From the NCBI GenBank assembly GCA_021819825.1, contig JAKAEZ010000001.1, positions 71,600 through 135,599 on the forward strand: a DNA stretch of 64,000 bases, written 5' to 3'. The notes below the pieces were generated by a model. That model searched no databases. It was not told where the DNA came from and saw only the letters and a program-made list of their open reading frames with translations. Below are positions 8,706 to 64,000 of the stretch, piece after piece (position 1 is the first letter of the stretch; each line of letters starts with the position of its first letter). This DNA is from Planctomycetota bacterium. GTDB taxonomy: Bacteria; Planctomycetota; Phycisphaerae; WQYP01. The translations under genes were made by a program, and so were the position numbers.

Positions 8706-9268
8706 AAAGATCGTCCTTTCCGCGCAAACTTTGCGCGACAACCAACCCGCGCTCCATCGCCGGTCATCTTCTCACGGCAGGGAACGCCATATATTCTTGC
8801 AGCTTGAATATCATTGTTGGGGGTGGTGAGTTAAAACGCAATAGGTGTTTCAGGTCTGCTTAGACCGATGCGCGATGCCAAGGGCGAGGCGCTGACAACC
8901 GCATTTCATCGCAGTTGATCGTATTGTCCGGCCGTCAGTGTAAATGCGCCAATGTGCCGCACCCTAGTGAATACTGGCTCATCATCGTGTTTGAGATTCC
9001 ACACCGGCTGGGCCAAAAAGAACGCGGTGGTTTGATACTCGCTGTACTTCTGATACGCGCCTAGGAATTTTACGGATAGCAGGACACGGAGAATTACCTA
9101 TTGGCAATACCGCATTTTTCTGACTATTGCGCACGGTTTGATTCCCGGCAGCAGGCCGCAGCGCGAACCGTAAGAGAATCCCCCATAGAGTTTTTGGTTA
9201 AATGACCTATATTCCATAGAGTGTTTGTCCTGATGATCAGCATTTCACCGGCACGATAAGATAGATAC

Positions 9269-42739: not shown

Positions 42740-43930
42740 ATGAAATATGCCATTATCATTCCCGACGGAGCGGCCGACGCCCCGATTGCTGAACTGGGCA
42801 ATAAAACGCCTCTGGAAGCCGCATGTAAACCCAATATGGACGGGGCCGCCCACAACGGTCGCATCGGAACGGTTCGCACCACCCCGCCGGATTTCAGCCC
42901 CGGAAGCGATGTATGTACGCTCTGCCTTCTGGGTTATGACCCCGCGCAATATCATCCGGGCCGCGCTCCGTTGGAAGCCGCAGCAATGGGCCTGAAGCTC
43001 AATGCCTCAAACTGGGTTATTCGGTGCAACTTCGTCACCATTATTGACGGAAAAATGGTGGATCATTCCGCCGGGCACATCAAAGATAACGAGGGCCGCA
43101 CGCTTTTACAGGCCGTCACGGCGGCCGTGGGAAACGCCGGCAAAGTTACGTTTCACCCGGGTGTAAGTTATCGCAATTTAATGACGCTGGCCGGCGTTGA
43201 TTTAACCAAAGTAAAAACCACTCCCCCCCATGATATCCCCGATCAGCCGGTTAAAAATTATTTACCGCGCGGAGCCGGCGCGGAGCCGTTGCTGGATATT
43301 ATGAACAAGGCCCGCGCCGTGCTTAAAGACCATGAAGTGAATCTGGTACGGCGACAATTCGGCGAAAATCAGGCGACAGATATCTGGCTGTGGGGCCAGG
43401 GAAAACCCAAGCATATTCCAAGCTTTAAGGAACGTTACGGCATTTCGGGAGCTATGATTACCGCCGTGGATTTACTGCGTGGAATTGCCAATCTGCTGGG
43501 CTGGAAGAATATTGATGTGCCCGGAATCAGCAGCTATCACGATACCGATTACGCCGCTCAGGGAAAATACACCTGCGACGCATTGGACCATTTTGATCTG
43601 GTCTGCTGCCACGTGGAAGCACCAGATGAAGCCAGCCATCAGGCGGACTTCACCACGAAAATCAAAAGCATTGAAGCCATTGACGAACATGTGGTGGGAC
43701 CGGTGCTCAAGAAATTAAAAACGTTTGATCAATGGCGTCTGCTGATCATGCCCGACCATGCCACCCAATGCGCCACGCGCAAGCACCACGAAGCCCCCGT
43801 ACCATTTCTGATCACTGGTTCGCATGGAAAAAGCAGCATCGCCCGCGCCTACACGGAACAGGCCGCCATGGAAAGCGACCTGCATATAGAAGCCGGCTAC
43901 GAGTTGATGTCGTATTTTTTAACCAAATGA
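42740..43930 (+). CDS. apgM: Archaeal-type cofactor-independent phosphoglycerate mutase family protein (ApgM family; in some databases annotated 'proposed homoserine kinase')
   Basis: MKYAIIIPDGAADAPI N-terminus and iPGM_N/metalloenzyme-superfamily signatures. Length 396 aa. Confidence 0.85.
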   Translation: MKYAIIIPDGAADAPIAELGNKTPLEAACKPNMDGAAHNGRIGTVRTTPPDFSPGSDVCTLCLLGYDPAQYHPGRAPLEAAAMGLKLNASNWVIRCNFVTIIDGKMVDHSAGHIKDNEGRTLLQAVTAAVGNAGKVTFHPGVSYRNLMTLAGVDLTKVKTTPPHDIPDQPVKNYLPRGAGAEPLLDIMNKARAVLKDHEVNLVRRQFGENQATDIWLWGQGKPKHIPSFKERYGISGAMITAVDLLRGIANLLGWKNIDVPGISSYHDTDYAAQGKYTCDALDHFDLVCCHVEAPDEASHQADFTTKIKSIEAIDEHVVGPVLKKLKTFDQWRLLIMPDHATQCATRKHHEAPVPFLITGSHGKSSIARAYTEQAAMESDLHIEAGYELMSYFLTK

Positions 43931-44416
43931 GGCGATTACCAATGATCAATGAACAACGCCACCTTTTCGTGATTCCGCGTGTTCCAACCAATAGCTGAAT
44001 CCCCAGATATACATGACCAGCCTAACGCCAGAATACTGCAAGAGTAGGTAGCCGGTTACCTCAAAGGACCACCCTTTTTTTCGGTCCAGCACAAGGAATC
44101 ACATTCCTCGGACAAATTCCATAACCACACAAGTGAAAAAAGAGGCACCCCCAACAGCAGGAACACAAAATCTTTTTTCACGATTCCCCAGCGGGCACCG
44201 GGCTGACCGCAAGGGAAGGGGAAAATGTTGCAAATGCGTGGTATGACAGATACAAGGTGGCACCGTTTCCGTTCGAAAAGTGAATAATTCTATGCTGCAA
44301 ACACCTTCGGCGACTCATAATAACTCCGCGTTAACATTGGGCACCGGATACCGCAGTGGACGCGAAACAGGTACGGAGTTATTTCACCAAAGTTTGATGG
44401 CGTGGCACATACCACA

Positions 44417-51288: not shown

Positions 51289-54200
51289 TTATTGCCCAGG
51301 TTGATGACTTTGAATCCATGCAGGCCCCGGCAGCGCGTAAGGGCGGAATTTTTCCATCACGCCTTGCTCCTCACTGCATGACAGGCCGCGGTAGAAGCCC
51401 AGATTATTGGCGGCCGGCGAGTCAATTAAACTGCTGGAATCCGCTGCACTCATCTGAAAAAGCACCCGGTTGTCAAATTCTCTCTGGGCAGATCGTTCAA
51501 ATGTGCGTTCCAATGACGCCAAGGTATCCACCCAAGTCAAGATGTGAATACCAACTCCTGGGCCATCACGCAGAATTTCACTAAATTCCTTCGCCGGGTT
51601 GGGGGCCTTGGCCTCATCACCTGAAGACATCGAGAAGCTAAAGTCGTCCTCGTTTTTCCGCAACATTCGGTAACGCTGGAGAGCGAAAATAAAAAGAAAT
51701 GTCTCCGGCGCATTGGGCGACTCTTCGGCCAGGCGACGATGAACCTCCTGGTTAACTGAGTGAATCGTATCTCCGATGCCTCGCCATTCGACGATTTGCA
51801 CGTCCGGGCCTAATGCGGGCGTGAGACGTTCAAATGTACCGGCCAAGCGGGAATCCGCCGCCAACCCATCCATGATATAAAATTTTGCCCCCCCACGCGG
51901 ATACTGTGCCGCTAAGGAAATCAGCGACCAGACCATCAGTGATAGCGCTTGTTCCTCCTGCTGGCCGACCAGCAGAACATTGGATCCGCTTTGCCGCCGC
52001 AGGGTCAGATCGGTAGGCTCTTTAATGGCCACCGGCTCGCCAATCCACGCGCGGGCTGAGGTCGGAATAGTCGTGGGCCTGTCGCCGGCCAGGAGAGCAC
52101 TTAGTTGTTTATTCATCTGGGCATCCGCCGGAGCATTGCCCTCAAATATGACCGGTGGCTCAAAGTGGAATGAAGCATCCTTGGCACGACTGCTGATTTG
52201 ATCCAGATAAATTTCCCGCTTTTCATCCGGCAGCCACGCCACCTGGAACGGGCTGTTAGCCTCTACCAAACCACCGGCATCATTGTAAATTGCGGCACCC
52301 GGGCGGGAAAGCAATCGCGCCGCCGAGTTATTATCTCCCAAGATTATCTGCGAATCCGCCTCGCTTACTTGCAGCGCAATGCGCACGGCCATTTGGCCGA
52401 TGGTGCTGCGGGCCAATCCGGAAGTACCGCCGATAGTTTGCGACCCCAGCAGCAGGTGAATGCCAAAGGCTCGGCCTTGGCGTACCAGACGATCCATTAA
52501 CAATCCGGCTTGTTGGGCCAATTTGTCATCTTCGGAAAAAAATTCCTGAAATTCGTCAATCACCAGCAGAGTTCGCGGCATGGTTTGCGCACCCGCGCTG
52601 CGACGATATGACGGCAAGTCCTGGACTCCCGCCTTGCGGAATAATTCACCACGGCGTGCCAATTCTACATCCAGACGTTCCAAAACACTTAAGCCAAACT
52701 CCCTATCACTTTCTACCGCGATCGCCCGGGCATGGGGCAGGTGATGGGTGGCATAGGTTTTAAATTCCACGCCTTTTTTAAAGTCGATCAGATACAGCTC
52801 AATTTGATCCGGTGAATACCACATCGCCAGATTGGTCACAATCGCGTGCAGCAGCGTGGATTTGCCCGAACCGGTTTTCCCAGCCAGCAGCGCGTGTTGA
52901 GCCATCGCCCGGCCCAGACGCAACATCTGCAGCCGCGTAGCCCCCATACGACCGATTGGAACAGCCAGCGAGTCCGAACTGTCGAGCGACCAAAATTCTG
53001 CATCGCCCGGCGCGATGGTATCAAAGGAGACTTCAACATTCTGATTGGCTTTGGCGGCCTGGCCAATTTTATCCAAGAGCGGTGTAAACACTTCCTCGGT
53101 GGGCGGCTGATCCAGTGCAAGCGGGAACTGGCCGAACACATCATCCTTCCAACTAAATGATTCCGCCTTCTGCACAATATTGACGCAGTGCGCGGCGATA
53201 TCCTCCAGTTGCGTTGCCGAGCCGGCAGGCATTTGCATATCACCCGCCGCCAGCAGATATACGCCGCAACGCGCGCCCGTCGCGGCAATACTGGCCAGCC
53301 GCCGCAGGCAATCTCGCTCAAAACCGGACGGAAAATCAGCAATAACGACAAAGCGGTATGGCTCGGCCAATTCACCGGCCTGCGCGTTGTAATCATCAAT
53401 GGTGGCAAATTCATTGCGCAGATATTTTTGAATGACTGTTTCCATGTGTTCCGTAAGGTCTGAAAGCCGCTGCTCAATTTGTTCCGGGCGCGTCCAGATT
53501 CGCCCCCCCACCAGCGCCTCATCATGATCGGCAAGCCGCATAAACCCCGCAAAATTCTGCCCCAGTCCTACGGGATCAATGATGGTAAATCTGGCCCGGC
53601 CGGGCGGCAATTGCGTGAGAATACTGATCATCACCGATTGCAGCATCTGCAGGGCCGCCGGCCGCCCGGTACGGTCATAGCGCACCAGCATGGAGGCACC
53701 AAAGGGAAATTCCAGCGCTGCCGGCACCGCAAAGGCCGCCGGGAATTCCAACTTTACCGCATCACCTTTAGCGCCGGCGGCGACCACCCGCTTGAGATCT
53801 ACCGAAAACTCGCCCAAGCGGATAACTTTTGGAAAAATATTTGATGGCGTCCAGTTTTCCCATGACGGCGTGCCGTGGCGATCAACGTTTTCTTTTATCG
53901 ACATATTCCCATTGGTGTGCTGGTCGGAAGATGGCTCGGGGATATGCGCCAAACCATTTTTCAACCGGTTTTTCAGCGTCAGCATGGCCTGATCATATTG
54001 CGCCCGGTTATCCGCCAGACGTTCTTCGTATTGTCGCTGTGCAGCAAGAATATCCGCGTCGTGCTGCTTCCGTATGGCCTGGTTCTGGGATTCGCTTTCT
54101 TCTTGCGCAGCGCAAACCGCGGCGGCGCGTTGCGCATCACTTTCAGCTTTGCTGGTGTCATATTGCTGCTGGGACTCCTGCCGCCGTGCGGTGCGCTTGG

Positions 54201-55245
54201 CTTCAATGTTTTGTGCCGCTGCGGCGGCCTTCTGCTTTAATTCCTGCAACTCGCGCAATGCTTTGGCACGGGTATCGGCGAAGTGCGCCTCGTGCCGTTG
54301 GGCCACCATTTCAGCATGTTGTTTTGCGGCCTGCCGCGCTGACGCAATGGCGACATTCAGGGGTTGATTGATTGCCAGTAAGCCGGCCTTCGCCCATGAA
54401 CGGAGCACCAATCCAAGAATAATAGCGCCCGCGAAGGTCCCGCCCACCGCCATGGCAATGACATTAACTTGCACCGGGGTAGAACCCGACAGGCCATAAG
54501 CCACCGCCCCCGCCGCCCCGCATAGCAATATGAGGAATATCCACGGTGCAACGCCGTAAACCAGCCGCGGCAGCAGTAATCGACGAAGAGCCGCCAATTC
54601 TCTCTGGGCGGATTCCAAGTGTGCGGCCATGGCAGCTCTCTGGTCCTGGCCTTCCAGCGCGGCAATGCCTGGGGTTTCCGGTGCTCCCGGCGGCCGACGG
54701 AAACACCGCGCCATCAAAGCCGCCGCGGATTGCGCCACTTCCGCCAGAGCCTGTTCGTGCTCATGGAACACTTTGCTTAGTTCTTCATCTTCGGCACGAA
54801 TCTGATTGCGGGCCGTTTCCACTTCTCCTTCGGCCAGCCATTTGGCTTCTTCTATTTGATTGCGGACTTTCCGCTGCGCATCCGCGTTTTCCCATTTGAT
54901 GGCCGCTTGGGCCTGATTATATTCTTCCGTGCACTGTGCCAGACGGCCCTGATAATCGGCGGCGATTTTTTCCGCAGTGCGTTCACGTTGCGCCGTAAGC
55001 TTTTCAACTTCAAGAGAATATCGGCTCTCTATCTGCGCCAGCGTGTTGTCGCGATCTTTTTTCGCCTGTTCATTGGCGACCCGAAATTGCCGCTCAATCT
55101 GGGACTCATCGGTTGTGCATTGTGCGGCCAAACTTAGCAGGTCGCGCAGCACAGATTTTTGAGCATCGCGCCGGGGACACGCGGCACCATGCTTCTCGGT
55201 CAACGGCGAAACGCGCGGATCAGTCTTTGGGTGTAACTGGGTCAT
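51289..55245 (-). CDS. FtsK/SpoIIIE-family triple P-loop ATPase, T7SS EssC/EccC-like (atypical architecture)
   Basis: Length 1318 aa. The layout is a ~230-aa coiled-coil N-terminus, 2 TMs, a second coiled coil, then three FtsK-like domains. Only the middle domain has a canonical Walker A (LLAGKTGSGKST) and Walker B (LLVIDEFQEF). Confidence 0.85.
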   Translation of the reverse strand: MTQLHPKTDPRVSPLTEKHGAACPRRDAQKSVLRDLLSLAAQCTTDESQIERQFRVANEQAKKDRDNTLAQIESRYSLEVEKLTAQRERTAEKIAADYQGRLAQCTEEYNQAQAAIKWENADAQRKVRNQIEEAKWLAEGEVETARNQIRAEDEELSKVFHEHEQALAEVAQSAAALMARCFRRPPGAPETPGIAALEGQDQRAAMAAHLESAQRELAALRRLLLPRLVYGVAPWIFLILLCGAAGAVAYGLSGSTPVQVNVIAMAVGGTFAGAIILGLVLRSWAKAGLLAINQPLNVAIASARQAAKQHAEMVAQRHEAHFADTRAKALRELQELKQKAAAAAQNIEAKRTARRQESQQQYDTSKAESDAQRAAAVCAAQEESESQNQAIRKQHDADILAAQRQYEERLADNRAQYDQAMLTLKNRLKNGLAHIPEPSSDQHTNGNMSIKENVDRHGTPSWENWTPSNIFPKVIRLGEFSVDLKRVVAAGAKGDAVKLEFPAAFAVPAALEFPFGASMLVRYDRTGRPAALQMLQSVMISILTQLPPGRARFTIIDPVGLGQNFAGFMRLADHDEALVGGRIWTRPEQIEQRLSDLTEHMETVIQKYLRNEFATIDDYNAQAGELAEPYRFVVIADFPSGFERDCLRRLASIAATGARCGVYLLAAGDMQMPAGSATQLEDIAAHCVNIVQKAESFSWKDDVFGQFPLALDQPPTEEVFTPLLDKIGQAAKANQNVEVSFDTIAPGDAEFWSLDSSDSLAVPIGRMGATRLQMLRLGRAMAQHALLAGKTGSGKSTLLHAIVTNLAMWYSPDQIELYLIDFKKGVEFKTYATHHLPHARAIAVESDREFGLSVLERLDVELARRGELFRKAGVQDLPSYRRSAGAQTMPRTLLVIDEFQEFFSEDDKLAQQAGLLMDRLVRQGRAFGIHLLLGSQTIGGTSGLARSTIGQMAVRIALQVSEADSQIILGDNNSAARLLSRPGAAIYNDAGGLVEANSPFQVAWLPDEKREIYLDQISSRAKDASFHFEPPVIFEGNAPADAQMNKQLSALLAGDRPTTIPTSARAWIGEPVAIKEPTDLTLRRQSGSNVLLVGQQEEQALSLMVWSLISLAAQYPRGGAKFYIMDGLAADSRLAGTFERLTPALGPDVQIVEWRGIGDTIHSVNQEVHRRLAEESPNAPETFLFIFALQRYRMLRKNEDDFSFSMSSGDEAKAPNPAKEFSEILRDGPGVGIHILTWVDTLASLERTFERSAQREFDNRVLFQMSAADSSSLIDSPAANNLGFYRGLSCSEEQGVMEKFRPYALPGPAWIQSHQPGQ

Positions 55246-55269
55246 AGTTATGAATGCCTCGCCGACGGT

Positions 55270-55488
55270 TTACTGACAATCGCGCCGCACCTGCGTAAGC
55301 ACCATGGCGATATGTTCCATGGCGTTGGCGGCCGCGTGCAGGTCGGTAGCCAAGGGTTCAAGAAATTTTTTCTCAAAGCGGGCGCTGGCGGCATCATTCC
55401 AGCCAAACTTCACTTCCTCCCAGCTTAGCTGGAGGTGATTCAATGCCTTGGCCAATTGCCCGCGACCTTCATAAACACCCATAAACAA
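55270..55488 (-). CDS. Small helical WXG100-like protein (WxD variant)
   Basis: About 70 aa with central GWNDAASARFEKKF, matching the W-x-G…F…F pattern of the ESAT-6/EsxA hairpin. Immediately upstream of the FtsK-like gene. The start is TTG at 55488 or ATG at 55482. Confidence 0.5.
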   Translation of the reverse strand: MFMGVYEGRGQLAKALNHLQLSWEEVKFGWNDAASARFEKKFLEPLATDLHAAANAMEHIAMVLTQVRRDCQ

Positions 55489-55542
55489 GCCCGCCCTTTT
55501 TCTTGCACCATTTGTGAACCTCGCAGCGACAGGCTGGTACGT

Positions 55543-56574
55543 TTACTTTCGCTGCGTGCCGACATCTCGCCCCTGGGGGTCCTTAATCTCTGCACTGCCC
55601 TGCAAATCCAATATAACAGAAAAACCCACCGGGAGTTTCAGAATTTTTAGCCACTCCGGACTTTTTTGTGCAATATCAGCCACCGTAATCGACCGCCATG
55701 GGCCATGGGCCTTACCCAGTGGCATAAGGCACCAGCCTGTGTCTTCAGGTGATAACGGCTCTGTGCGACGTAGCGTCAGCAAGCACGGTTGGTTATCAGT
55801 TGACTCGGCGAAAGTTATCTTCGCTTCCGGGCGTAATGTCGGGTCCTCACCGGCGAGAGGTTCAATGGCACTAAGCTGCGAATCAGTTAACGTCGGAGCA
55901 GCAAAAGGCCACTGCTTTTGCGGTGCCGCAATGCGGCGTTCTTCGGAACTGGGAAGCAAGAGGTCGCTTTCAAGGCGTTGTGGGGTTGGCTCTTTGGACC
56001 CCGGCGCGCCACGCGACATAACCGCACCCTCCGCCGCCGGGGAGACAAGCGTAAACGGCCCGGCGTTTTCCGAACTTACACCGCCGGGGCTTGCAATGGA
56101 AGCGTATGCCTGCAATTCCGCGACAAGCCGTTCCAGATGCGTTACGCCCGCCGGCACCAGAGATTCCACGCTTGTCGCAAGGCGCTGTACCGAACCTTTA
56201 TATAATTCCACTTCTTTTTGTAAGGCCCGTGTCCAGCGCCGCACATTGGCCAATTTTTGCTCGGCCTCGGTCAATCGGACCATGGCACGTTGTAATTCTT
56301 TTTGCTCCTCAATGGCGGATAACGGTTTTCCGGAATGATCCCGGAAAAGTTTCTTCATACGGACCGCCTCCTTGGCCCGTTCAACGGCGGTTTGGCGTTT
56401 GCGTGTTTGATCTTTCCAGAAGTTTTCCTGCTCAATTTCCAGCCAGAGCATGGTGCGACGCAATTCGGAGTCCGCATCTTCCATGGCGGCGTTGGCTGCC
56501 GCCTGAAACTTCCAGAGCACCGCCTGGAAGCCGACCAGCAAATCCACAGATTCAACCCGAGCGCTCTCGGCCAT
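55543..56574 (-). CDS. Hypothetical protein: helical/coiled-coil N-domain plus Pro/Ser-rich low-complexity C-terminus (candidate secreted substrate)
   Basis: ATG start at 56574, 343 aa. The N-terminal ~160 aa are predicted helical (LWKF…, WLEIEQENFWKD). The C-terminal half is P/S/A-rich. Confidence 0.55.
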   Translation of the reverse strand: MAESARVESVDLLVGFQAVLWKFQAAANAAMEDADSELRRTMLWLEIEQENFWKDQTRKRQTAVERAKEAVRMKKLFRDHSGKPLSAIEEQKELQRAMVRLTEAEQKLANVRRWTRALQKEVELYKGSVQRLATSVESLVPAGVTHLERLVAELQAYASIASPGGVSSENAGPFTLVSPAAEGAVMSRGAPGSKEPTPQRLESDLLLPSSEERRIAAPQKQWPFAAPTLTDSQLSAIEPLAGEDPTLRPEAKITFAESTDNQPCLLTLRRTEPLSPEDTGWCLMPLGKAHGPWRSITVADIAQKSPEWLKILKLPVGFSVILDLQGSAEIKDPQGRDVGTQRK

Positions 56575-56583
56575 GATGCAGTC

Positions 56584-56883
56584 CTATCGCTCGTTAAGGT
56601 ATTTTTCTATATGCTGCGCTTTCTTCATCAAAACCTTGGCGTGCTCGGTCGATGATTCCATGAACTTCCCCAGATACTGCGCCGCCTGATCAAAAGTTTC
56701 GGCAAACTTTTGCTGCTCCTGATCGCGCCAGCTTGATTCCAGAGACCGCAGCCGGGAATTTAATCCCGACATAAGCCCTTCCAGATCATTATTAAACTGC
56801 ATCAGCCCCTGGGCAAACCGCCGCAACTCCGCCGGATCAACACTCGCTTTGGCCATACGATTCATCTCCGTGTATGCCGCCAA
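56584..56883 (-). CDS. WXG100-family (ESAT-6/EsxA-like) small protein, WxD variant
   Basis: Helical hairpin of 90-99 aa with central SSWRDQEQQKFAETF (WXG-like). The likely start is the ATG at 56856 (RBS GGAG with a 9-nt spacer); the track start at 56883 is TTG. Confidence 0.65.
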   Translation of the reverse strand: MAAYTEMNRMAKASVDPAELRRFAQGLMQFNNDLEGLMSGLNSRLRSLESSWRDQEQQKFAETFDQAAQYLGKFMESSTEHAKVLMKKAQHIEKYLNER

Positions 56884-57259
56884 TCAACTTAAACATAGCC
56901 TACCATTGAAACCAACAGACACCAAGACGTTTCTCCGCTGGTTGCGGGGATGGGCGTGGCAATAATTCCGGGCGGGCATCCGCGATGCGAGTTTCCAAGG
57001 CCAAGCATTCTCTTAGCGCCTGCTTTTATGCCGTCGATTTCGCCGCCTCCCTGGAAATACTGCCACGCCCAAGCGTATGCACCTACCCTCCTCCCGCCAC
57101 GCCTCAACCCGCAAACGCGCAAACCCACAAGCCGCAAATTAACCGATCAATACGCCATTTACCGCCAATCCCAAACCTCCCGCCCCCGTCGGTGACAAAT
57201 TCCAAATACCAAATGCTCTCCCCGGTTATTCGTTATTCGTTGAGAATATTGATTTGCGA

Positions 57260-57403
57260 TCAGTGTCCTTTGATCAGCGGAAAGGACTCCTGATTGCTCG
57301 TCCAACCCCCTGTCCCCTGTAACCCCCGCCGGAGGGCGGTTGTGCCGGAATTTATCCCGTGCGCGCCGGGATGGTGAAATTTGTTATCGTTCAGTGCAAC
57401 CAT
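57260..57403 (-). pseudogene. Truncated 5' stub of the MVALNE-leader / RHS-tail cassette family (47 aa)
   Basis: Encodes MVALNDNKFHHPGAHGINSGTTAL… and then terminates. It shares the conserved ~78-nt 5' element with the 59747 and 62639 copies. Confidence 0.5.
57326..57403 (-). repeat. Conserved ~78-nt element (leader codons plus 5' flank) of the MVALNE cassette family, copy 1
   Basis: About 90% nucleotide identity to 59673-59747, with the differences including a 3-nt in-frame indel. Confidence 0.7.
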
Positions 57404-57603
57404 AACCCAGTCCATAACACGAAACCGACGATTTCGACACTTTACCGCCGCCAACTCCTCTCTCGGCGAAGCCGTCGCATTCATTAAAACCGTCGTTATT
57501 TCCATTAACTAATCACGTCCGCGCATATGCGATCCCTCCGTTCAGAAAACCGCTTAATGGATCCGCAGCGGAGCGGCCTGTTGGGTAGCCTTTCGCATCC
57601 ACA

Positions 57604-58716
57604 TCATTTCCTTTCAGATGGATGCGTTTTTACCGGTAGCCATTCGACCGCAACGACATGCTTTCGGCCTCGACCTGAAGCAAAGCCAAAGATCATCCCA
57701 CGCGACGTAATAGCGTAGGCTTGCGAGAAGCTATACCGGAGCGGCAGTAGTTTCTGCAGGTCAGTTGCGCTTTCTGGGGTCCCATTCCATACCATCGCGT
57801 GTGCCATGCCGTGAATACGGCTGGTTCCGTACCCCACCTCCTGCCTGCCGTTTGTGCTGTTTGCACAGGACACGGCGCACCCGCTGGGGTTTAAGTCGAC
57901 GAACCTTTTCCCTGACGTGAACCACAGGATGGCGTGGCCGCCTTTGACACCCTTGAGCCGTCCATAGCCCACTATTCTACCGCCACCAGTGCCCACCGCT
58001 TTTGACCAAGCGTATTCTCGAGGATTGAGATCAACCGCGCTCGCTGCGCTTCCCCGCCAAAGCAGTGCCTGATATTTTCCATTTAAGCGTTTTCCGAACC
58101 CAACCTGGTGAACACCGTCCGTTGCCACCGCCTCTGATGAAACGAATCCTTTGGGATTCAGATTAATAAAGCTTTGCGGGCTACCTCTCCAAATCGCGGC
58201 ATAATCCAAATCTCCCGGGGCCTCCACGTAGCCTACTTCTTGGCTAGCTCGCACCGAAATGGCCTGAGAGAATTTAAATCCACGTGGGTTGAGCAGGATC
58301 ACACCTTGGGCCACTCCCGACCATAGAAGGGCCCCACCACGATCGCCGGGCATTTGGCCTGCGCCTACCTGCCATCTCCCGTTTGTGCCTTCCGCGTCCG
58401 ACCAGAGAAACCCTTTCGGGTTTAAATCAACGATGCCCTCCCCTCCAACCCCGCCCAATAGCGCGTGGCCGAAGTGCCGGTGTCCCAACCTCAATCCCAT
58501 ACCAACCCATCGGCCGCCACGGGCCCCCTGAGCAACCGCCTGCCAATAGCCGGGAGTCTTCAAAATGACCGCACGGTATTTCGTGGCCGGCGGAACGCCG
58601 TGGCTCGTTCTCCCCAACGGCCCGATGTGTCCGCGCGCTGGGTTAGCCGCCAGAGGGATTTGGCAATGCACCGACAGGAGGATGGCCATTGCGACTATAC
58701 ACAAGCGCTGGATCAT
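57604..58716 (-). CDS. Secreted HAF-family extracellular repeat protein (~8 x ~40-aa repeats)
   Basis: Signal peptide MIQRLCIVAMAILLSVHC. Repeats carry the HA(F/I)LW…DLNP…S.A…GYG pattern, for example HAILWFTSGKRFVDLNP, HAMVWNGTPESATDL and ALLWRGSAASAVDLNP. Confidence 0.7.
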   Translation of the reverse strand: MIQRLCIVAMAILLSVHCQIPLAANPARGHIGPLGRTSHGVPPATKYRAVILKTPGYWQAVAQGARGGRWVGMGLRLGHRHFGHALLGGVGGEGIVDLNPKGFLWSDAEGTNGRWQVGAGQMPGDRGGALLWSGVAQGVILLNPRGFKFSQAISVRASQEVGYVEAPGDLDYAAIWRGSPQSFINLNPKGFVSSEAVATDGVHQVGFGKRLNGKYQALLWRGSAASAVDLNPREYAWSKAVGTGGGRIVGYGRLKGVKGGHAILWFTSGKRFVDLNPSGCAVSCANSTNGRQEVGYGTSRIHGMAHAMVWNGTPESATDLQKLLPLRYSFSQAYAITSRGMIFGFASGRGRKHVVAVEWLPVKTHPSERK

Positions 58717-58841
58717 ACCAACAAATCCTCACCATGATTTCGTCGCGTCAGGGCACCACAGGACTGCCGCGACATATCAAATATTGCAGTACCGCAGGTT
58801 GGGATATTCTTGGGGAGCGCAATGTTGCGGCGTTGGCGGTC

Positions 58842-59747
58842 TCAAGTAGGCGGAGGCCACATGTTGAACGATGGCGACGGAGTGGGGGAGGGCGGAGGCA
58901 TCAGTGATCTCGCCCAATTGACCAACGAGTCCGCTTCCGCCATGAGATCGCGGTAGCTCGGTTCGCAACCATCTTCCAACAGTTGTTGCATTTCCTGGCT
59001 TGCGTCGCCTACCGCGTAAGCCATCCCAGCCCCCTCAAAGGGAACGCTGGTGCCACCGCTCTCAAGTGCGTCATTAATATCCCACAACAGGGAACCCAGC
59101 GTCAGGGCAAGCTTGGCGGCGTCCGCGGCACATTTTTTATCACATTGCATCTCCAGGGAATGCTCTTGTGATTTTATCTGCTGCCACCTTGCCCAAGCCC
59201 ATAAATTGCCGCCCGAAAGATTGGGCGGCAGCAAGCCCCAAGCGTCCCTGCCCACCGGGTCTATTTCCGCCTGGCCGCCCACATACTCATACAAATTCAC
59301 GCCACCGGCGTAGTCGATGGGATCGCGTTGCAGCACCCGAGTCGCCACTCCTGTGGCCCGTCGGGATTTCGGCTCCTGCCTCAACACCGTGCCAGGAATC
59401 GAGTTGTGCCTGCGGTTGCGAGCGTAATAGAGTTCCGTTTCCGGATCGTTTAGGCCCGTCCCGATATCCGTTGAAACACGAATGTTATCGGGATACCCGC
59501 AGCAAATGATTTCATCGGCACCGACGCTTCGCTCAATGACCAATGAGTAATGATCAATGAACAAATCATTGGAAGTTCGGCGTTTCTGGCCAGTGGTCCG
59601 TGATCGTTGATCAATGAAGTTCACCCCAGATTCCCCGTTCCGCTGTAACCCGCAACCCGTAACCTGTAACCTCCGCCAGAGGGCGGTTGTGCCGGAATTT
59701 ATCCCGTGCGTGCCGTTATGGTGAAATTTTTCGTTCAGTGCAACCAT
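58842..59747 (-). CDS. MVALNE-leader protein with a degenerate RHS repeat-associated core and a variable C-terminal (toxin-like) domain
   Basis: MVALNEKFHHNGTHGINSGTTAL leader. Degenerate core (…DPETELYYARNRRHNSIPG…LQRDPIDYAGGVNLYEYVGG). A unique C-terminal region of ~150 aa with a PPSPTPSP tail. A stop codon lies 2 codons upstream of the ATG. Confidence 0.6.
   Translation of the reverse strand: MVALNEKFHHNGTHGINSGTTALWRRLQVTGCGLQRNGESGVNFIDQRSRTTGQKRRTSNDLFIDHYSLVIERSVGADEIICCGYPDNIRVSTDIGTGLNDPETELYYARNRRHNSIPGTVLRQEPKSRRATGVATRVLQRDPIDYAGGVNLYEYVGGQAEIDPVGRDAWGLLPPNLSGGNLWAWARWQQIKSQEHSLEMQCDKKCAADAAKLALTLGSLLWDINDALESGGTSVPFEGAGMAYAVGDASQEMQQLLEDGCEPSYRDLMAEADSLVNWARSLMPPPSPTPSPSFNMWPPPT
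59673..59747 (-). repeat. Conserved element of the MVALNE cassette family, copy 2
   Basis: See copy 1. The 5' UTR motif ccgcaaaag…agccaat is additionally shared with copy 3. Confidence 0.7.
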
Positions 59748-59870
59748 GAATTACCCGCAAAAGAAAGCAAGCCAATACCGGAATTATATCCCCTTGCACC
59801 CGGACTGCAGATAAATCCATGCAATCCATGCAACCCCACCGGTATAGTACATTTTGATAGGTGGCCGTCC

Positions 59871-60404
59871 CTAGCATTCCCGTTTCGCCCCACGCGGTAT
59901 TTCGGCACGGGGCCGAAGGCCAATCCTTGCGGGTACCCTATCGGTTTTCCGGCGTTTTGGAACCACGGGTTGTGTTGCTGTCGAGGGTATCCCCCTCTGG
60001 CCAATTCCGTTGTTCACAGCCACCTTCACGAACGCCCAAAGGGCAGTGAGGAAAAAGGCGGCAACTACAATAACGAGAGCGGTCCCGATACAGCTTATAA
60101 CGGTCCCCGCAATGGCGAGTCCGCGCGGCTCTCTTTTCAGTCCAAGCGAGCTGAAAATCAGCGCGATTGGCGATGCGATCCCGAAGAAGAATACCAAGCT
60201 GACGACGGAGAGGATGAATCCAACCAATCCCATGGTGTTGCCTCCGGCGGAAGCATTGGGTCTCGGCGGTCGCCCCGCTGCGATTACACGTTCCGTTTGT
60301 GCAACCAGCGCGCTGTGGCAACCGTCACATACTCGATCATTTCCGTCCCACCTCACGGTTCCAGATTCGGCGAGTTCGCGCCCGCATTTTATGCATTTAC
60401 CCAT
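59871..60404 (-). CDS. Zinc-ribbon plus multi-TM small membrane protein (DUF4190-like)
   Basis: N-terminal CxxC…CxxC (MGKCIKCGREL…CDGCH), followed by hydrophobic segments. Good RBS AAAGGAAC. Confidence 0.5.
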   Translation of the reverse strand: MGKCIKCGRELAESGTVRWDGNDRVCDGCHSALVAQTERVIAAGRPPRPNASAGGNTMGLVGFILSVVSLVFFFGIASPIALIFSSLGLKREPRGLAIAGTVISCIGTALVIVVAAFFLTALWAFVKVAVNNGIGQRGIPSTATQPVVPKRRKTDRVPARIGLRPRAEIPRGAKREC

Positions 60405-60549
60405 CCTAGGTTCCTTTCGCTTGAGCCAATCTATCTAATCCATGGTTTCCGTGGAAGGGCGCTTTTTCTCCCGAGCGCACAAGCCAGCAACACCGGCCCC
60501 CAATCCAGCGAACAGCTTGGCCGTCTGTCCGGTGCACGAACCAACTTAA

Positions 60550-61293
60550 TCAGCGAACCGAGCCCATGAAGGAGAGCAGGTTTCGAATGGCAATATTCGC
60601 CCAGGTGACCACATGTGGCCATGCCAATATGCACATGGTAGTCAGCCACCCCCAAACCTTCACCGTAGCGGATTGCCATCGCCAAGTTCCCCACGGCCCA
60701 GGCCCGAGCGTCCTGCGCCCCGCAGCACCACTCGCCCTCGGCTCCGCCATCGCACCATTGGCCCCCGCGGGTGCACTGGTGCAACAGAGAGCAAGGCACT
60801 CCGCCTCATCCTGGCCGCTCTTGAATGCCCTTGCAGGCACAATTATCACAAGGTCATGGCCGCGCACGGCAGATAGTAGAAATAGCCCGTGTTCGTTGGC
60901 CTCGAAACATGCTACACCTTCCCATGGTATTGCGAGCGAACCCCCATTGGAACTCGATGAAATCCCCCGCGTACTTATGTTGACCTCGTAGTTGCCGAGC
61001 CAAGCGGCAATTCCGTACAATCCCTCTGACCTTACCGCAGCAAGGGATGCGTACGAGTGCGTCACAAACCTCCTGAACTTCATACGCGAAATCACTAAAA
61101 TTAAAACATAATAGCTGCCAAGAAGGAAAATCGCCGGCCCCCTGGCCAGCAGTGCCAAGGGTCCGGCAAAAAGCCAAGGGAGCAGCAAAATCACCCGGGC
61201 AGCTCGCGAGAACGCCGACCGACTTTTTTTGAGCAACCAAGCATTGGCATAGTATGCGTCCTCCGGACGAGCCGAATATTGAAGATTGAACAT
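60550..61293 (-). CDS. YcxB-like (two TMs plus bacterial PH domain) putative immunity protein
   Basis: N-terminus MFNLQYSARPEDAYYANAWLL…, two TMs and a PH-like region. Lies immediately downstream of RHS-tail copy 3. The start is the ATG at 61293 (RBS GGAG), or the GTG at 61359, which overlaps the toxin stop (TAGTG). Confidence 0.5.
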   Translation of the reverse strand: MFNLQYSARPEDAYYANAWLLKKSRSAFSRAARVILLLPWLFAGPLALLARGPAIFLLGSYYVLILVISRMKFRRFVTHSYASLAAVRSEGLYGIAAWLGNYEVNISTRGISSSSNGGSLAIPWEGVACFEANEHGLFLLSAVRGHDLVIIVPARAFKSGQDEAECLALCCTSAPAGANGAMAEPRASGAAGRRTLGPGPWGTWRWQSATVKVWGWLTTMCILAWPHVVTWANIAIRNLLSFMGSVR

Positions 61294-61358
61294 GGCGCAA
61301 ACTCCAGAACACCGCGCTGATATCGCGCGGGGGGCACGGGGCTCCACCGACGCAAACA

Positions 61359-62639
61359 CTACAATAGCGCGGGGGCAGTTCCACCAAGCATTGAAATCGC
61401 TTGCCGGATCAGCGCCAAGGCAAGCGTCGCGTCCTGCAGAGCGCCCGCAAGCGCAAGTTCAGGAAGTTCGGCCCAAGCTACGGCCGCAACGGCCCCCGCA
61501 AGTGCCCACTTGTTTAGCGTGGCTTGCCCCGAAAACATCGCGTCGAAATCAAAACGGTAACAAACGCATTTCTGGTCCGACCAACTGTAGTAACTCCCTA
61601 CTATCGTGCCACCTTCATAGATCGATACCAATGGCCCGCCGATCCACACGCCGGCCATTAAATTAACTGAAAAAACACCAAAATCTGTGTTGGTGGTGGC
61701 GATGATTCCGCCGGGGATCAATGCCGCTGTGTGGAATATCCTTGGGGGAACGATCCATTCGTTCCGGCATTCGCTTTCCGAACGAGAGGTACGCACCTTG
61801 GAAACGCCAGCCGAACCTTCGACACCAATCCCGGCTAATTCGTGGCCAAAGAGCGATATCTCGCCTCCAAAGCCGAAGAGCACGTCAATGTAGTGCCTTC
61901 CAATTCGCCAGTGGACTGAGGGCTGCCCCCAAGGGTTGAAGCCACCGTGCAGCCCTGCTGCGTCTCCGGTGATCGCCGCCCGTCCCCCCACATACTCATA
62001 CAAATTCACGCCGCCGGCGTAGCCGATTGGATCGCGTTGCAGCCAGCGGCCAAGGGTCGGGTTGTACGTTCTCGCGCGGACATAGTAGAGTTCTGTTTCG
62101 GGATCAAACCTGTACCCGCAATAAATAATTTCATTGGCGCCGTAGGAAGATTGCACATCGTCGTCCGTGAACCAGATGCTATCTGCGCCAGGACCGGTGA
62201 AGATCAGCGTATTGCCGTAGGCATCAGTATCTTAAGCCTCGACAATCGCGCCAGATGAATTGGTCAATGCCACAGCGCGATACAAAAAATCTTGCAGCAG
62301 GTAGTACGCGCCAGCAGGCAGGGATTGCGGGCCGAGCGGAACCAGCGTGGTGAGCTGAATTAGCTCATCAACGTATGTTCCCCAGATGTACTGCCGGATC
62401 GGTGCGTCGCTGGAGTTCCTTTCTTCCATGCACTGCCAGCCAGCCCATATATAGTCTGTCGTGCCATTGGGGATGTTTCCAGTCAAGCCGCCATTGAAAT
62501 AATTTTCTGCCACAGAGGCCACCGAGGACTCAGAGGCCCCACGATTCGCGGCACCGTCAGATGGCGCGAACTCCCCTTTCCGGCCCACGCTTCGTGTCGT
62601 CGTGTCGTTGTTGTGAAAATGTTCGTTTAGTGCAACCAT
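61359..62639 (-). pseudogene. MVALNE-leader RHS-tail polymorphic toxin cassette with canonical RHS core, interrupted by one in-frame TAA
   Basis: ORFs 62232-62714 and 61359-62156 are in the same frame. They are separated only by TAA at 62232-62234, inside the RHS motif …GAIVEA*DTDAYGNTLIFTG…. The canonical core is YCGYRFDPETELYYVRARTYNPTLGRWLQRDPIGYAGGVNLYEYVGG, followed by a ~210-aa unique C-terminus. Confidence 0.65.
62612..62639 (-). repeat. Conserved element of the MVALNE cassette family, copy 3 (partial; leader codons only)
   Basis: ATGGTTGCACT(A/G)AACGA… is shared with copies 1 and 2. Confidence 0.55.
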
Positions 62640-62845
62640 AAGCTGTCCGCAAAAGCCAATTGTTTCAACCCTCAAATCCTGTCCCCTCCGATGCAAATCG
62701 CAAAGCGAGATCATGAAAGCTGCGTCCGCAACGCGACACGCGTTTACCGCCTCACTGCCCGCCGTCTTTATGACCGGCCTTGGAGTCGACGGATGCCACC
62801 GCCTCGCTTCCCCGCCCTTTCGCGTTCACGGCCAAAGCAACCATA

Positions 62846-63166
62846 TCAAATCCCGTGCATTAACTTAGTGGCGCTGGCCAGCACAGCGCCTAACGACCAG
62901 CCCAAACAAACCGCGGACAACTGCAGAACAGCCCAGCCCGCCAGACGGCGGCCCATAGCCGTCGGTTGAGGGGCTGCACAGGCCAGCACGTCGAACGCTG
63001 CGCAGAGCGCCGAACCCAACGACAAGACTGCGGCAGGCTCCGGAATCAAGGGCAGCGGAAAGTGACCGGGGGGTACGCCCGCAATCAACAGCACCAGCGA
63101 GCCGGCTAATCCAATGATCGCCAGAAGCAGCGCGCCTCCGCCCTTGAACCCTCGACTCCGTTCCAT
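62846..63166 (-). CDS. Small membrane protein (106 aa, 3 TMs)
   Basis: ATG at 63164-63166 with RBS GGGAG. Hydrophobic. Confidence 0.4.
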   Translation of the reverse strand: MERSRGFKGGGALLLAIIGLAGSLVLLIAGVPPGHFPLPLIPEPAAVLSLGSALCAAFDVLACAAPQPTAMGRRLAGWAVLQLSAVCLGWSLGAVLASATKLMHGI

Positions 63167-63195
63167 GTTCGGTACTCCCGTGTGAACCGTTCTTT

Positions 63196-63543
63196 TCAGC
63201 CACCGTAGGCGAGACTGCCCAGCACCATGCAACACCACAGCCCGGATGCTCCCAATGCGACCGCAGCGAGGCTGGAGGCTAATACATATGCTCCGACCGT
63301 AGCTCGCGCGCCACCCGCGCGAGATATCCGCCAAAAATCGGCGGTACAGCTCGCCACTGCCGATGCGGACAAGGCTGCCACCGCTGGAGGAAGCAACCAA
63401 TGGCTGCAGGATATGACGATAGGAAACATCCCGCCGAATGAAAACCACGACACACAATAGGGAAAAAATGCGCAGAATGCCAAGAACGCCGCCCAGAGTG
63501 CCTTCGCCCGTCTAGTGAAGTTGGTAGAAAATTCCGAGTTCAT
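63196..63543 (-). CDS. Small membrane protein (115 aa)
   Basis: ATG at 63541-63543 with RBS AGGAG. 3-4 TMs. Confidence 0.45.
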   Translation of the reverse strand: MNSEFSTNFTRRAKALWAAFLAFCAFFPYCVSWFSFGGMFPIVISCSHWLLPPAVAALSASAVASCTADFWRISRAGGARATVGAYVLASSLAAVALGASGLWCCMVLGSLAYGG

Positions 63544-63632
63544 CGCTTTTAGCTCCTAAATTGCGCGCTGCGGTCAGCTTCGATATCGATCCGGAATCAG
63601 CCTAATACGCGGCCCCCCCGTCCTCCCGGTGC

Positions 63633-64000
63633 TTAGGTGCCCTGGCATTGACACGGCGTCTTGGCGTTAACATCATATCCCTGCACCCAGACTGGAACGG
63701 TATCCGCGCCCAGCCCCAGGTTCCAGAATGAGGGACCGGAAAATGGCGACTCGCGGTACCAGGCAAGGTTCCCGTCGAGGTAGAGTTCTGCGTCGGGAAA
63801 TTCAGTAACGACACCAAACACGCTGATAGACACGCCAGTCTTGGAAGCCGTGAAGTATACCACCAGCGAGTACATAATCGGAGGTGCCACATGCAGGTGG
63901 AAGACCGTAAATGGGTATCCGGCCCAGCCCCAGACCGAAACTCGTGTCGTACACTTTCCGGGACTGGTTATGTCTGTGTGGCTCACAACCGACGCCTTCG
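63633..64000 (-). CDS. Partial CDS (3' end in window): C-terminus of a larger protein with a LamG/ConA-like jellyroll signature (…AELYLDGNLAWYRE…)
   Basis: The frame is open to the window edge upstream of the track start. The track 'M' at 63986 is a GTG. Confidence 0.45.
   Translation of the reverse strand, partial: KASVVSHTDITSPGKCTTRVSVWGWAGYPFTVFHLHVAPPIMYSLVVYFTASKTGVSISVFGVVTEFPDAELYLDGNLAWYRESPFSGPSFWNLGLGADTVPVWVQGYDVNAKTPCQCQGT

Follow-up and report, generated by a model that had tools for sequence, protein, structure and literature searches.

The DNA analysed here is a stretch of 64,000 nucleotides (nt) from a Planctomycetota bacterium of the Phycisphaerae lineage (GenBank assembly GCA_021819825.1, contig JAKAEZ010000001.1, positions 71,600 to 135,599), referred to below as the window. 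Between 57260 and 62714 its minus strand carries an array of cassettes that are Rhs polymorphic-toxin orphans, unusual in having what appear to be their own promoter, start codon and N-terminal leader. The array is probably a strain-variable island of self-expressing mini-Rhs genes with a 5′ end native to the family, derived by internal deletion. Its interest lies at the level of the family more than in this partly decayed locus.

Each unit has the anatomy of a small gene complete in itself, unlike a displaced tip that stays silent. Its parts, in order, are a putative sigma70-type promoter, a 5′ untranslated region (UTR) of approximately 35 to 40 nt, a start codon, the opening MVAL-N/D-E-x-F-H-H, a disordered and freely evolving linker, a YD-repeat remnant of variable length, the Rhs core, an exchangeable toxin and one or two immunity genes. 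Throughout the Rhs family of this clade, promoter and leader would constitute the native 5′ end. Internal deletions, apparently by recombination between YD repeats, would have taken out the shell and left the 5′ expression module together with the core-toxin-immunity end, giving a graded size series from well over 1,000 amino acids (aa; the frameshifted L039 gene) down to approximately 170 aa (labels of the form L0xx, e.g. L001 to L041, denote related loci fetched for comparison). Toxin and immunity ends are exchanged by recombination at the core. Independent transcription and translation of the units would keep the immunity genes expressed and maintain a pool of toxin tips. Units would decay rapidly, and stubs standing before co-directional membrane or secreted-protein genes (L007, L008, L011, L012) may be units that have lost the toxin while the promoter still drives the downstream genes.

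Relatives of the cassettes, numbered 1 to 3 by increasing coordinate, were collected by searches with copies 3 and 2. Copy 3 yielded 368 relatives of 240 to 740 aa, the best 120 of which were evaluated and whose named sources were Phycisphaerae Rhs proteins; copy 2 yielded 84 further relatives of 170 to 494 aa, evaluated as 78 clusters. The leader was present in 56 of the 120 and 59 of the 78 clusters (115 of 198, from Phycisphaerae metagenomes), beginning at residue 1 in 100. The longest leader-bearing protein comprised 732 aa, and the distance from the leader methionine to the DPxG core ranged from 54 to 520 aa. The leader and linker of copy 2 (80 aa) matched only 33 proteins among 1.84 billion representatives, all short (68 to 388 aa) and always in the N-terminal part (match start at residue 1 to 118). 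Because it matches short proteins only, and these N-terminally, the leader is not an internal part of a large rhs gene; the scenario under which the original prediction was to be abandoned, in which the leader belongs to the C-terminal or internal part of one big rhs gene, is thereby excluded. The proposal that each cassette has its own start, unlike classic orphan tips, held up: a start codon of its own, a shared N-terminal leader and a putative sigma70-type promoter recur across the family.

A 26-nt degenerate leader pattern matched 14 contigs from five Planctomycetota/Phycisphaerales metagenome-assembled genomes (MAGs), with up to five contigs per MAG. In the loci fetched, leaders were without exception co-directional with Rhs cores, and approximately half were stubs of 36 to 100 codons. 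Viral contigs gave no leader match, by which carriage on phages was ruled out. Literature searches on the leader string and on T7SS (type VII secretion systems) of Phycisphaerae returned nothing relevant.

Conservation begins sharply at the start codon. Forty-one non-redundant leader modules were aligned on the ATG; information content was approximately 0.3 bit at position −1, rose to 2.0 exactly at ATGGT, and was back at background by approximately +45. Start codons were ATG and, in some copies, TTG or GTG. Codons 2 to 4 (V-A-L) showed proportions of synonymous (pS) and nonsynonymous (pN) differences of 0.43 and 0.02, a ratio of 0.05 (NG86) that indicates strong purifying selection, in a test partly biased by the inclusion of 16 loci found via a pattern degenerate at third codon positions. 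The ratio was 0.55 for codons 5 to 8 and 0.91 for codons 9 to 13. V2 and A3 were nearly invariant also in protein sets collected by Rhs or toxin similarity, not by the leader.

Upstream of the start, the modules fall into several unrelated 5′UTR classes. A predicted −10 box (at least five of six positions of TAGAAT) was located at −39 to −48 in 22 of the 41 modules, compared with 3.6 in shuffled sequences (maximum 10). Many of the remaining modules carried TATGAT, TAAAGT or TATAAT, and nearly all 5′UTR classes carry a −10 box. A −35 element (TTGCAA or TTGGCA) was found 17 nt upstream of the −10. The corresponding boxes of the window are a perfect TATAAT in copy 2, CAGGAT in copy 3 and TAAAGT in copy 1. 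In class A promoters (for example L001:3950-3965, L007, L008, L011, L014, L015, L019), a perfectly palindromic 12-nt sequence, GGTTTGCAAACC, covers part of the −35 region and could be an operator for a dimeric regulator. The RNA around the start is unstructured: when positions −38 to +50 of 27 modules were folded, z-scores ranged from approximately −1 to +2.4, by which a conserved RNA structure at the leader was ruled out. Rfam returned no family, either for the whole window at gathering thresholds or for 56800-64000 at E values up to 5.

Constraint is lost in the linker and resumes in the core. Linker substitutions at codon positions 1, 2 and 3 numbered 188, 211 and 219, as in unconstrained sequence; those in the core and toxin part numbered 237, 300 and 487. 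The G-rich tract behind the leader, considered as a possible G-quadruplex, is not kept across linker classes. In the AlphaFold2 model of copy 2, residues 1 to 160 had a predicted local distance difference test score below 40 and are thus predicted to be disordered. The core motif LQRDPIGYAGGVNLYEYVGG is under purifying selection in long and mini forms (pS 0.52, pN 0.085, pN/pS 0.16).

The linker of copy 2 contains two coding heptamer arrays (Table 1), which could act as a slipped-strand on/off switch; in the single natural example, the L014:3554 homologue, one GGTTACR unit is missing and a frameshift leaves a 39-aa stub. In the opa genes of Neisseria, the reading frame is switched by pentamer repeats within the coding sequence of the leader. 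Copy 2 resembles opa in having repeats with a period that is not a multiple of three between the start codon and the functional part; it differs in having approximately four units and one natural example only, and no sign of switching was detected. The mini-Rhs linker also contains partly palindromic, TGATCA-rich elements; similar ones stand by themselves in intergenic DNA (L025:9402-9435, L034:8550-8580 and 9139-9390, L035:8190-8235), so that the motif is a weak marker of leader modules. A cluster of CAxTGATCA motifs lies in the window at 43726-43951, apart from the array.

In the window the three start regions read ATGGTTGCACT(G/A)AACGA (MVALNE/D..), with ATGs at 62639, 59747 and 57403. The 15-mer GGTTGCACTRAACGA occurs three times (57387-57401, 59731-59745 and 62623-62637), with 0.18 occurrences expected and three reached in no shuffle; the leader 27-mer, with up to three mismatches allowed, occurs twice versus none expected. 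All three copies are co-directional on the minus strand, as had been proposed, but the long leader ascribed to all of them (..HGINSGTTAL) is common to copies 1 and 2 only, copy 3 having just MVALNEHFHNND (12 aa, approximately 40 nt) in common with the others. Likewise, the stop codon that was described just upstream of each ATG was found in copy 2 (TAA, two codons before the ATG) but not in copies 1 and 3, in which the upstream frame is open for 34 and 25 codons, respectively.

The description of the array as a stub, a copy with a degenerate core and a copy with a canonical core applies, except that the last of these is interrupted. The core of copy 2 scored 18.9 bits with TIGR03696, under the cut-off of 32.5, because a 17-aa insertion splits the G from the RW of a conserved motif; it keeps LQRDPIDYAGGVNLYEYVGG..DPVG, and the insertion itself is kept, with amino-acid constraint, in many intact mini-Rhs clusters. 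The core of copy 3 is canonical (64.2 bits, E=1.2e-17) and stands directly before the toxin. The pattern that marks this core domain (TIGR03696) reads ..RYYDPxxGRF/W..DPxG..GG.N.Y.Y..DPxGL. Its leader part and core/toxin part are in one frame with a single TAA between them, and because this TAA replaces the Y of the conserved IVEAYDTDAYGN, at which homologues are intact, it was interpreted as a nonsense mutation (TAY to TAA). Of the three copies in the window, only copy 2 looks intact, copy 1 being a stub and copy 3 having a weak promoter besides its nonsense codon.

A fourth, degenerate stub with an MVAL start may exist upstream of copy 3 (Table 1); it was not picked up by the leader nhmmer profile. 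The open reading frames (ORFs) at 62846-64000 are probably another toxin/immunity unit of the array, which itself probably runs on past the window edge. Downstream of copy 1, a minus-strand segment at 57140-57250 (..CAACGAATAACGA..CATTTGGTATTTGG..GACGGGGGCGGGAGGTTTGGGAT..) resembles the "class D" upstream (promoter) region (L022:1896, L031:6627). Its TAGAAT box is mutated, and the segment may be the remnant of a further leader module directly before the WXG100 operon.

Longer forms of the family point to the origin of the short genes. An 854-aa frame in L034 opens with a degenerate leader. In L039-L041 (L039:3683-7105) a leader variant, MVASNDGFAKGAGAGVRKQ (MVASNDGF..), precedes an Rhs body that spans 1,030 aa or more and is cut off by the end of the contig. 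The long L039 gene has at least two frameshifts, spreading it over three reading frames, and the same frameshifts were present in three metagenome samples; their identity in independent samples indicates either a conserved pseudogene or programmed frameshifting. No main rhs gene was found in the window, which probably ends inside the array. Where the end of the linker (..LFIDHxSLxxERS) meets the body, several junctions lie at the equivalent Y-[D/G]-A of different YD repeats (ERS/AGANEII, ERS/ADAYGNT and ERS/VDAMNRR, the slash marking the junction), the pattern expected if recombining repeats had deleted the sequence between them. In other junction classes the leader module stops at different points, so that its 3′ end is not fixed. 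A YD shell comprises approximately 1,200 aa or more; before the end of the core, approximately 230 aa are present in copy 3 (read through the TAA) and 160 aa in copy 2.

Exchange at the core was seen by comparison of loci. L001 and L002 are 99.1% identical over 12.9 kb and diverge right after the Rhs core, and therefore differ by a toxin swap; the same toxin was found on a 723-aa Rhs protein (L022) and on a 306-aa mini-Rhs protein (L031). The copy 2 toxin occurs in eight other clusters, on two different leader-linker types, and the copy 3 toxin domain is shared with P0002 only (63% identity). The cassettes thus show, by sequence comparison, the Rhs hallmark of a hypervariable C-terminal toxin exchanged at the core and followed by candidate immunity genes. 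Neither toxin matched Pfam or NCBIfam. The searches that had been suggested for the unique C-termini gave a fold in one case: AlphaFold2 modelled the copy 2 domain as a confident three-helix bundle, but structure search returned no PDB match at E<0.001. The AlphaFold2 model of the copy 3 toxin was of low confidence.

The YcxB-like and zinc-ribbon/DUF4190 genes lie between copies 3 and 2, in agreement with the proposed interleaving of cassettes and immunity-like genes. The YcxB-like gene is a candidate immunity gene for the copy 3 toxin; a homologue (47% identical) stands directly behind the homologous toxin in L039-L041. Homologues of the DUF4190 gene occupy the same position in L039 (61% identical) and follow a leader stub in L012 (42%). 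As all three homologues are consecutive in L039, the copy 3 toxin, YcxB-like and DUF4190 genes form one module. The secreted repeat protein encoded behind the copy 2 toxin may be the corresponding immunity protein; it had no Pfam or NCBIfam match at E values up to 0.01.

The gene for this repeat protein lies in a strain-variable segment and is missing from the close strain L031 (GCA_021844265.1), which is 98.9% identical to the window from 57436 down to 45897 and has the copy 1 stub and the WXG100 operon in common with it. Synteny begins inside the copy 1 module. Upstream of the stub, L031 carries instead an NmrA-like gene, a copy 2-type mini-Rhs gene with another toxin, and then a 95-aa membrane protein; the borders of the variable segment are the Rhs core and, at the opposite end, the leader stub module. 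An NmrA/epimerase-like gene of approximately 320 aa recurs beside Rhs/leader arrays (L001:8669-9631, L022:12624-13577, L031:8000-8977, L019:1-764) and may mark a preferred chromosomal site.

Table 1. Features of the mini-Rhs array and of the neighbouring operon (positions in the window).
Feature	Position	Strand	Details
ORF cut by the window edge, C-terminal 121 codons	63633-64000	−	
Two small multi-pass membrane ORFs	62846-63166, 63196-63543	−	Resemble orphan immunity genes
Possible fourth, degenerate leader stub (MVALAVNAKG.., 30 aa)	62752-62844	−	Repeat family D3, 73% identity
Copy 3, degenerate promoter and 5′UTR	62640-62720	−	Class-B-like UTR; −10 just CAGGAT; module alignment and −10 scan
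Copy 3, 5′ part	62235-62639	−	Leader MVALNEHFHNND, then approximately 120 aa of Rhs body (..NGGLTGNIPNGTTDYIW..YYLLQD..); homologues 60-83% identical
In-frame TAA interrupting copy 3	62232-62234	−	At the Y of conserved IVEAYDTDAYGN; homologues intact there
Copy 3, 3′ part	61359-62231	−	Rhs core 61983-62144, DxxGL boundary, unique C-terminal toxin domain of approximately 195 aa
YcxB-like membrane protein	60550-61293	−	PF14317, 23.7 bits (cut-off 23.3), E=4e-5
Zinc-ribbon/DUF4190 membrane protein	59871-60404	−	PF13828, E=1e-5, below cut-off; second gene of the copy 3 toxin module
Copy 2, −10 hexamer TATAAT	59783-59788	−	41 nt upstream of the ATG; −10 scan
Copy 2, intact mini-Rhs, 301 aa	58842-59747	−	Leader 59679-59747, linker, short Rhs remnant, core, C-terminal toxin
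Copy 2 linker, heptamer array (GGTTACR)x4	59644-59671	−	Tandem Repeats Finder
Copy 2 linker, heptamer array (TCATTGR)x4.4	59534-59564	−	Tandem Repeats Finder; encodes conserved LFIDHYSLVIERS
Copy 2, 17-aa core insertion	59340-59390	−	TVLRQEPKSRRATGVAT, 51 nt; splits conserved G and RW
Copy 2, LQRDPIDYAGGVNLYEYVGG motif	59274-59333	−	
Copy 2, predicted helical C-terminal toxin domain, 133 aa	58845-59243	−	
Secreted repeat protein, 370 aa	57604-58716	−	Signal peptide; approximately 7 repeats (..A.LW.G....DLNPxGF..S.A....G..VG); HAF-like by eye
Copy 1, leader stub, 47 aa	57260-57403	−	Upstream module to approximately 57490; right-hand boundary of the variable island
T7SS-like operon, four genes	51289-56883	−	Adjoins the array, co-directional
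WXG100	56584-56883	−	PF06013, 41.9 bits (cut-off 27.3)
343-aa protein	55543-56574	−	Weak C-terminal Imm33-like match, PF24719, 24.9 bits (below cut-off 27)
WXG-like protein, 72 aa	55270-55488	−	
FtsK/EssC-like ATPase, 1,318 aa	51289-55245	−	PF01580, E=4.6e-30; EccC/EssC models partial, below equivalog cut-offs

Several points weigh against an island of self-expressing mini-Rhs genes. The promoters and starts are putative, being deduced from conservation, and the selection test carries the partial bias given above. A good −10 box was found in the window in copy 2 only, and copy 2 is without a convincing −35. An intact full-length leader-bearing rhs gene was not seen in the window or in the loci fetched, the longest intact form having approximately 790 to 880 aa. 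The constraint on M-V-A-L exceeds what a generic expression module would need, and the peptide may have a function of its own, such as that of a signal; a purely intracellular role does not account for the constraint on an Rhs core whose protein is too small to build a shell. A leader stub stands upstream of the WXG100 operon in close strains, and a 34-nt remnant was found there in a relative with 85% orthologues, so the neighbourhood is older than a single recent insertion.

It is conceivable, if unlikely, that the leader, alone or together with the linker, directs export by another route or recognition by another partner (such as a separately encoded shell or TcB-like protein), with the mini-Rhs proteins as delivered effectors. 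The low pN/pS at codons 2 to 4, and the near-invariance of V2 and A3 in sets not collected via the leader, are in its favour. It would also suit the purifying selection on the core even of mini forms, the dozens of intact mini-Rhs clusters with conserved toxins, and a Pfam scan that gave no signal peptide, PAAR or other known trafficking domain. Past codon 8, however, the leader is neutral at the protein level, and the linker is unconstrained and disordered. Approximately half of the leader copies are stubs, some of them before non-Rhs ORFs, and no recurrent candidate partner or secretion genes were found beside the arrays. The strict retention of M-V-A-L and the constrained shell-less core nevertheless keep a signal or effector role alive as a slender possibility. 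An extended form, in which shell-less mini-Rhs proteins are effectors, the N-terminus is a new export or recognition signal (for WXG100/FtsK or another partner) and the heptamers are frame-shifting switches, is very improbable.

The promoter and leader might instead act mainly at the DNA level, as a recombination handle or mobile module and not as an inherited gene start. They would provide the downstream homology arm for cassette exchange, come in with new toxin/immunity DNA and re-activate the displaced gene. We regard this as decidedly unlikely. The modules are mosaic, the same post-leader sequence being found with 5′UTR classes A, B and C and switching at the leader core; the segment that varies between the window and L031 is bounded as a handle would predict; arrays end in stubs; and leaders also precede non-Rhs ORFs. 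Conservation nevertheless begins exactly at the start codon and leaves synonymous sites free (pS 0.43 to 0.52), which is not as predicted by a DNA site or by gene conversion. The 3′ end of the module differs between junction classes, recombinase or transposase genes do not regularly accompany it, neither attC-like structures nor inverted repeats were seen, and viral contigs gave no matches. An integron attC or other site-specific recombination site was ruled out by the shape of the conservation profile, which lies downstream of the ATG, and by the lack of dyad symmetry. Integron cassettes were likewise rejected: GTTGCAC deviates from GTTRRRY and no integrase was seen, attC having been judged by eye, without an attC model.

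That all three window copies are non-functional relics, the leader being leftover homology among decaying paralogues, is very doubtful. The stub nature of copy 1, the in-frame TAA and degenerate −10 of copy 3, the sub-threshold core of copy 2, the prevalence of stubs among leader copies and the frameshifted L039 gene would all fit decay. Against it, the ORF of copy 2 is unbroken and preceded by a perfect TATAAT; the copy 2 subfamily, the 17-aa insertion included, is intact in many genomes, with core and toxin under constraint; and the copy 3 toxin, YcxB-like and DUF4190 module is conserved elsewhere.

The operon directly downstream of the array, whose adjacency and shared direction were correctly described, combines a WXG100 protein with a multi-domain FtsK/SpoIIIE ATPase, as T7SS do. 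No EssA, EssB or EsaA, no EccB, EccD or EccE, and no MycP was found in it, and the conserved unit consists of the four genes only (five genomes). Imm33 is an immunity-protein family of polymorphic toxin systems; orthologues of the 343-aa protein with the weak Imm33-like match occur in Phycisphaerae and Tepidisphaeraceae. The operon fits the "mobile T7SS" of Zhang et al. 2012, defined as a solo WXG with a YueA-like three-domain FtsK ATPase in planctomycetes and others.

The compact four-gene operon was also found on contigs with 85%, 62% and 49% orthologues, surrounded by housekeeping genes (those for TrmE and aldose epimerase, and MoxR/VWA genes). Around these orthologous operons (L025/L026, L027 and L028), neither the leader (by nhmmer) nor an Rhs core (by tblastn) was present up to a distance of 10 kb. 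Homology between the window and the 85% relative begins just 22 nt before the WXG100 gene; the 34-nt remnant in that relative is of the TGATCA-rich linker and lies between TrmE and WXG100 (E=3.5e-4). The flanks examined of approximately 20 other leader loci contained no WXG100 or EssC homologues, and adjacency of array and operon is kept in near-identical strains only (L031-L033). No LXG/WXG helical domain was found in the N-terminal parts of the cassettes (Pfam, NCBIfam), and AlphaFold2 predicts the N-terminus of copy 2 to be disordered; in this, and in the unconserved operon linkage, the cassettes differ from LXG/WXG100-type T7SS toxins. Coupling of delivery to the T7SS-like apparatus, as the original prediction had it, is therefore not supported, and the adjacency most plausibly reflects a hot spot for insertions in this lineage, not a functional link. 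It is highly improbable that the leader serves for targeting and that the short Rhs toxins are exported by the neighbouring apparatus as its substrates: the adjacency and co-direction in the window and L031-L033, the 34-nt remnant, the constraint on M-V-A-L, the Imm33-like match and the listing of WXG/T7SS among Rhs-toxin trafficking modes by Zhang et al. 2012 are outweighed by a linkage that is conserved in neither direction, the spread of leaders over at least five contigs per MAG, the disordered N-terminus without LXG/WXG domain or Pfam match, and an operon without other T7SS core components.

Classic orphan rhs-CT elements of Enterobacteria are displaced Rhs tips downstream of a main rhs gene, without start or promoter of their own, and are silent until recombined. 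The planctomycete arrays resemble them in consisting of co-directional 5′-truncated rhs fragments that keep the core and are followed by different toxin ends and then immunity genes, with exchange at the core and strain-variable content. They differ in that the units have a putative promoter, a start codon and a conserved N-terminal leader, in that no intact full-length main rhs gene was found in the window or loci fetched, and in a truncation series that leaves as little as approximately 54 aa before the core. With the TcC/Rhs cocoon toxins they share the DPxG..DPxG core immediately before a hypervariable toxin, and the longest forms (approximately 730 to 880 aa) are TcC-sized; in the window copies, by contrast, the stretch up to the end of the core is 54 to 230 residues or less, far from enough to close a shell, and no TcB-, PAAR- or VgrG-type partner was seen. 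The closest functional analogue is provided by the rhs main and orphan elements of Salmonella Typhimurium, which have internal promoters and act as type II toxin-antitoxin modules (Starsta et al. 2020, PMC7043789), toxin tip and immunity being expressed in the producer independently of shell and secretion system. In Salmonella, the rhs reading frame itself contains the promoters, and a weak CTG serves as start codon (PMC7043789), whereas the planctomycete genes have a dedicated promoter/UTR/ATG/leader module common to more than 100 protein clusters, from which we infer expression and an immunity or toxin-antitoxin-like role.

The leader provides a simple sequence tag by which such genes can be found in metagenomes, and the position of the array beside the operon is a warning that adjacency alone is no ground for inferring secretion coupling. 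Throughout a clade of Planctomycetota, numerous Rhs derivatives, some of only approximately 170 aa, have been retained that share a promoter/start module and whose core is still under selection, which raises the question of the role of an Rhs core without a shell. If these genes are expressed, the finding of self-expressed Rhs toxin-immunity units in Salmonella would extend to a distant phylum.

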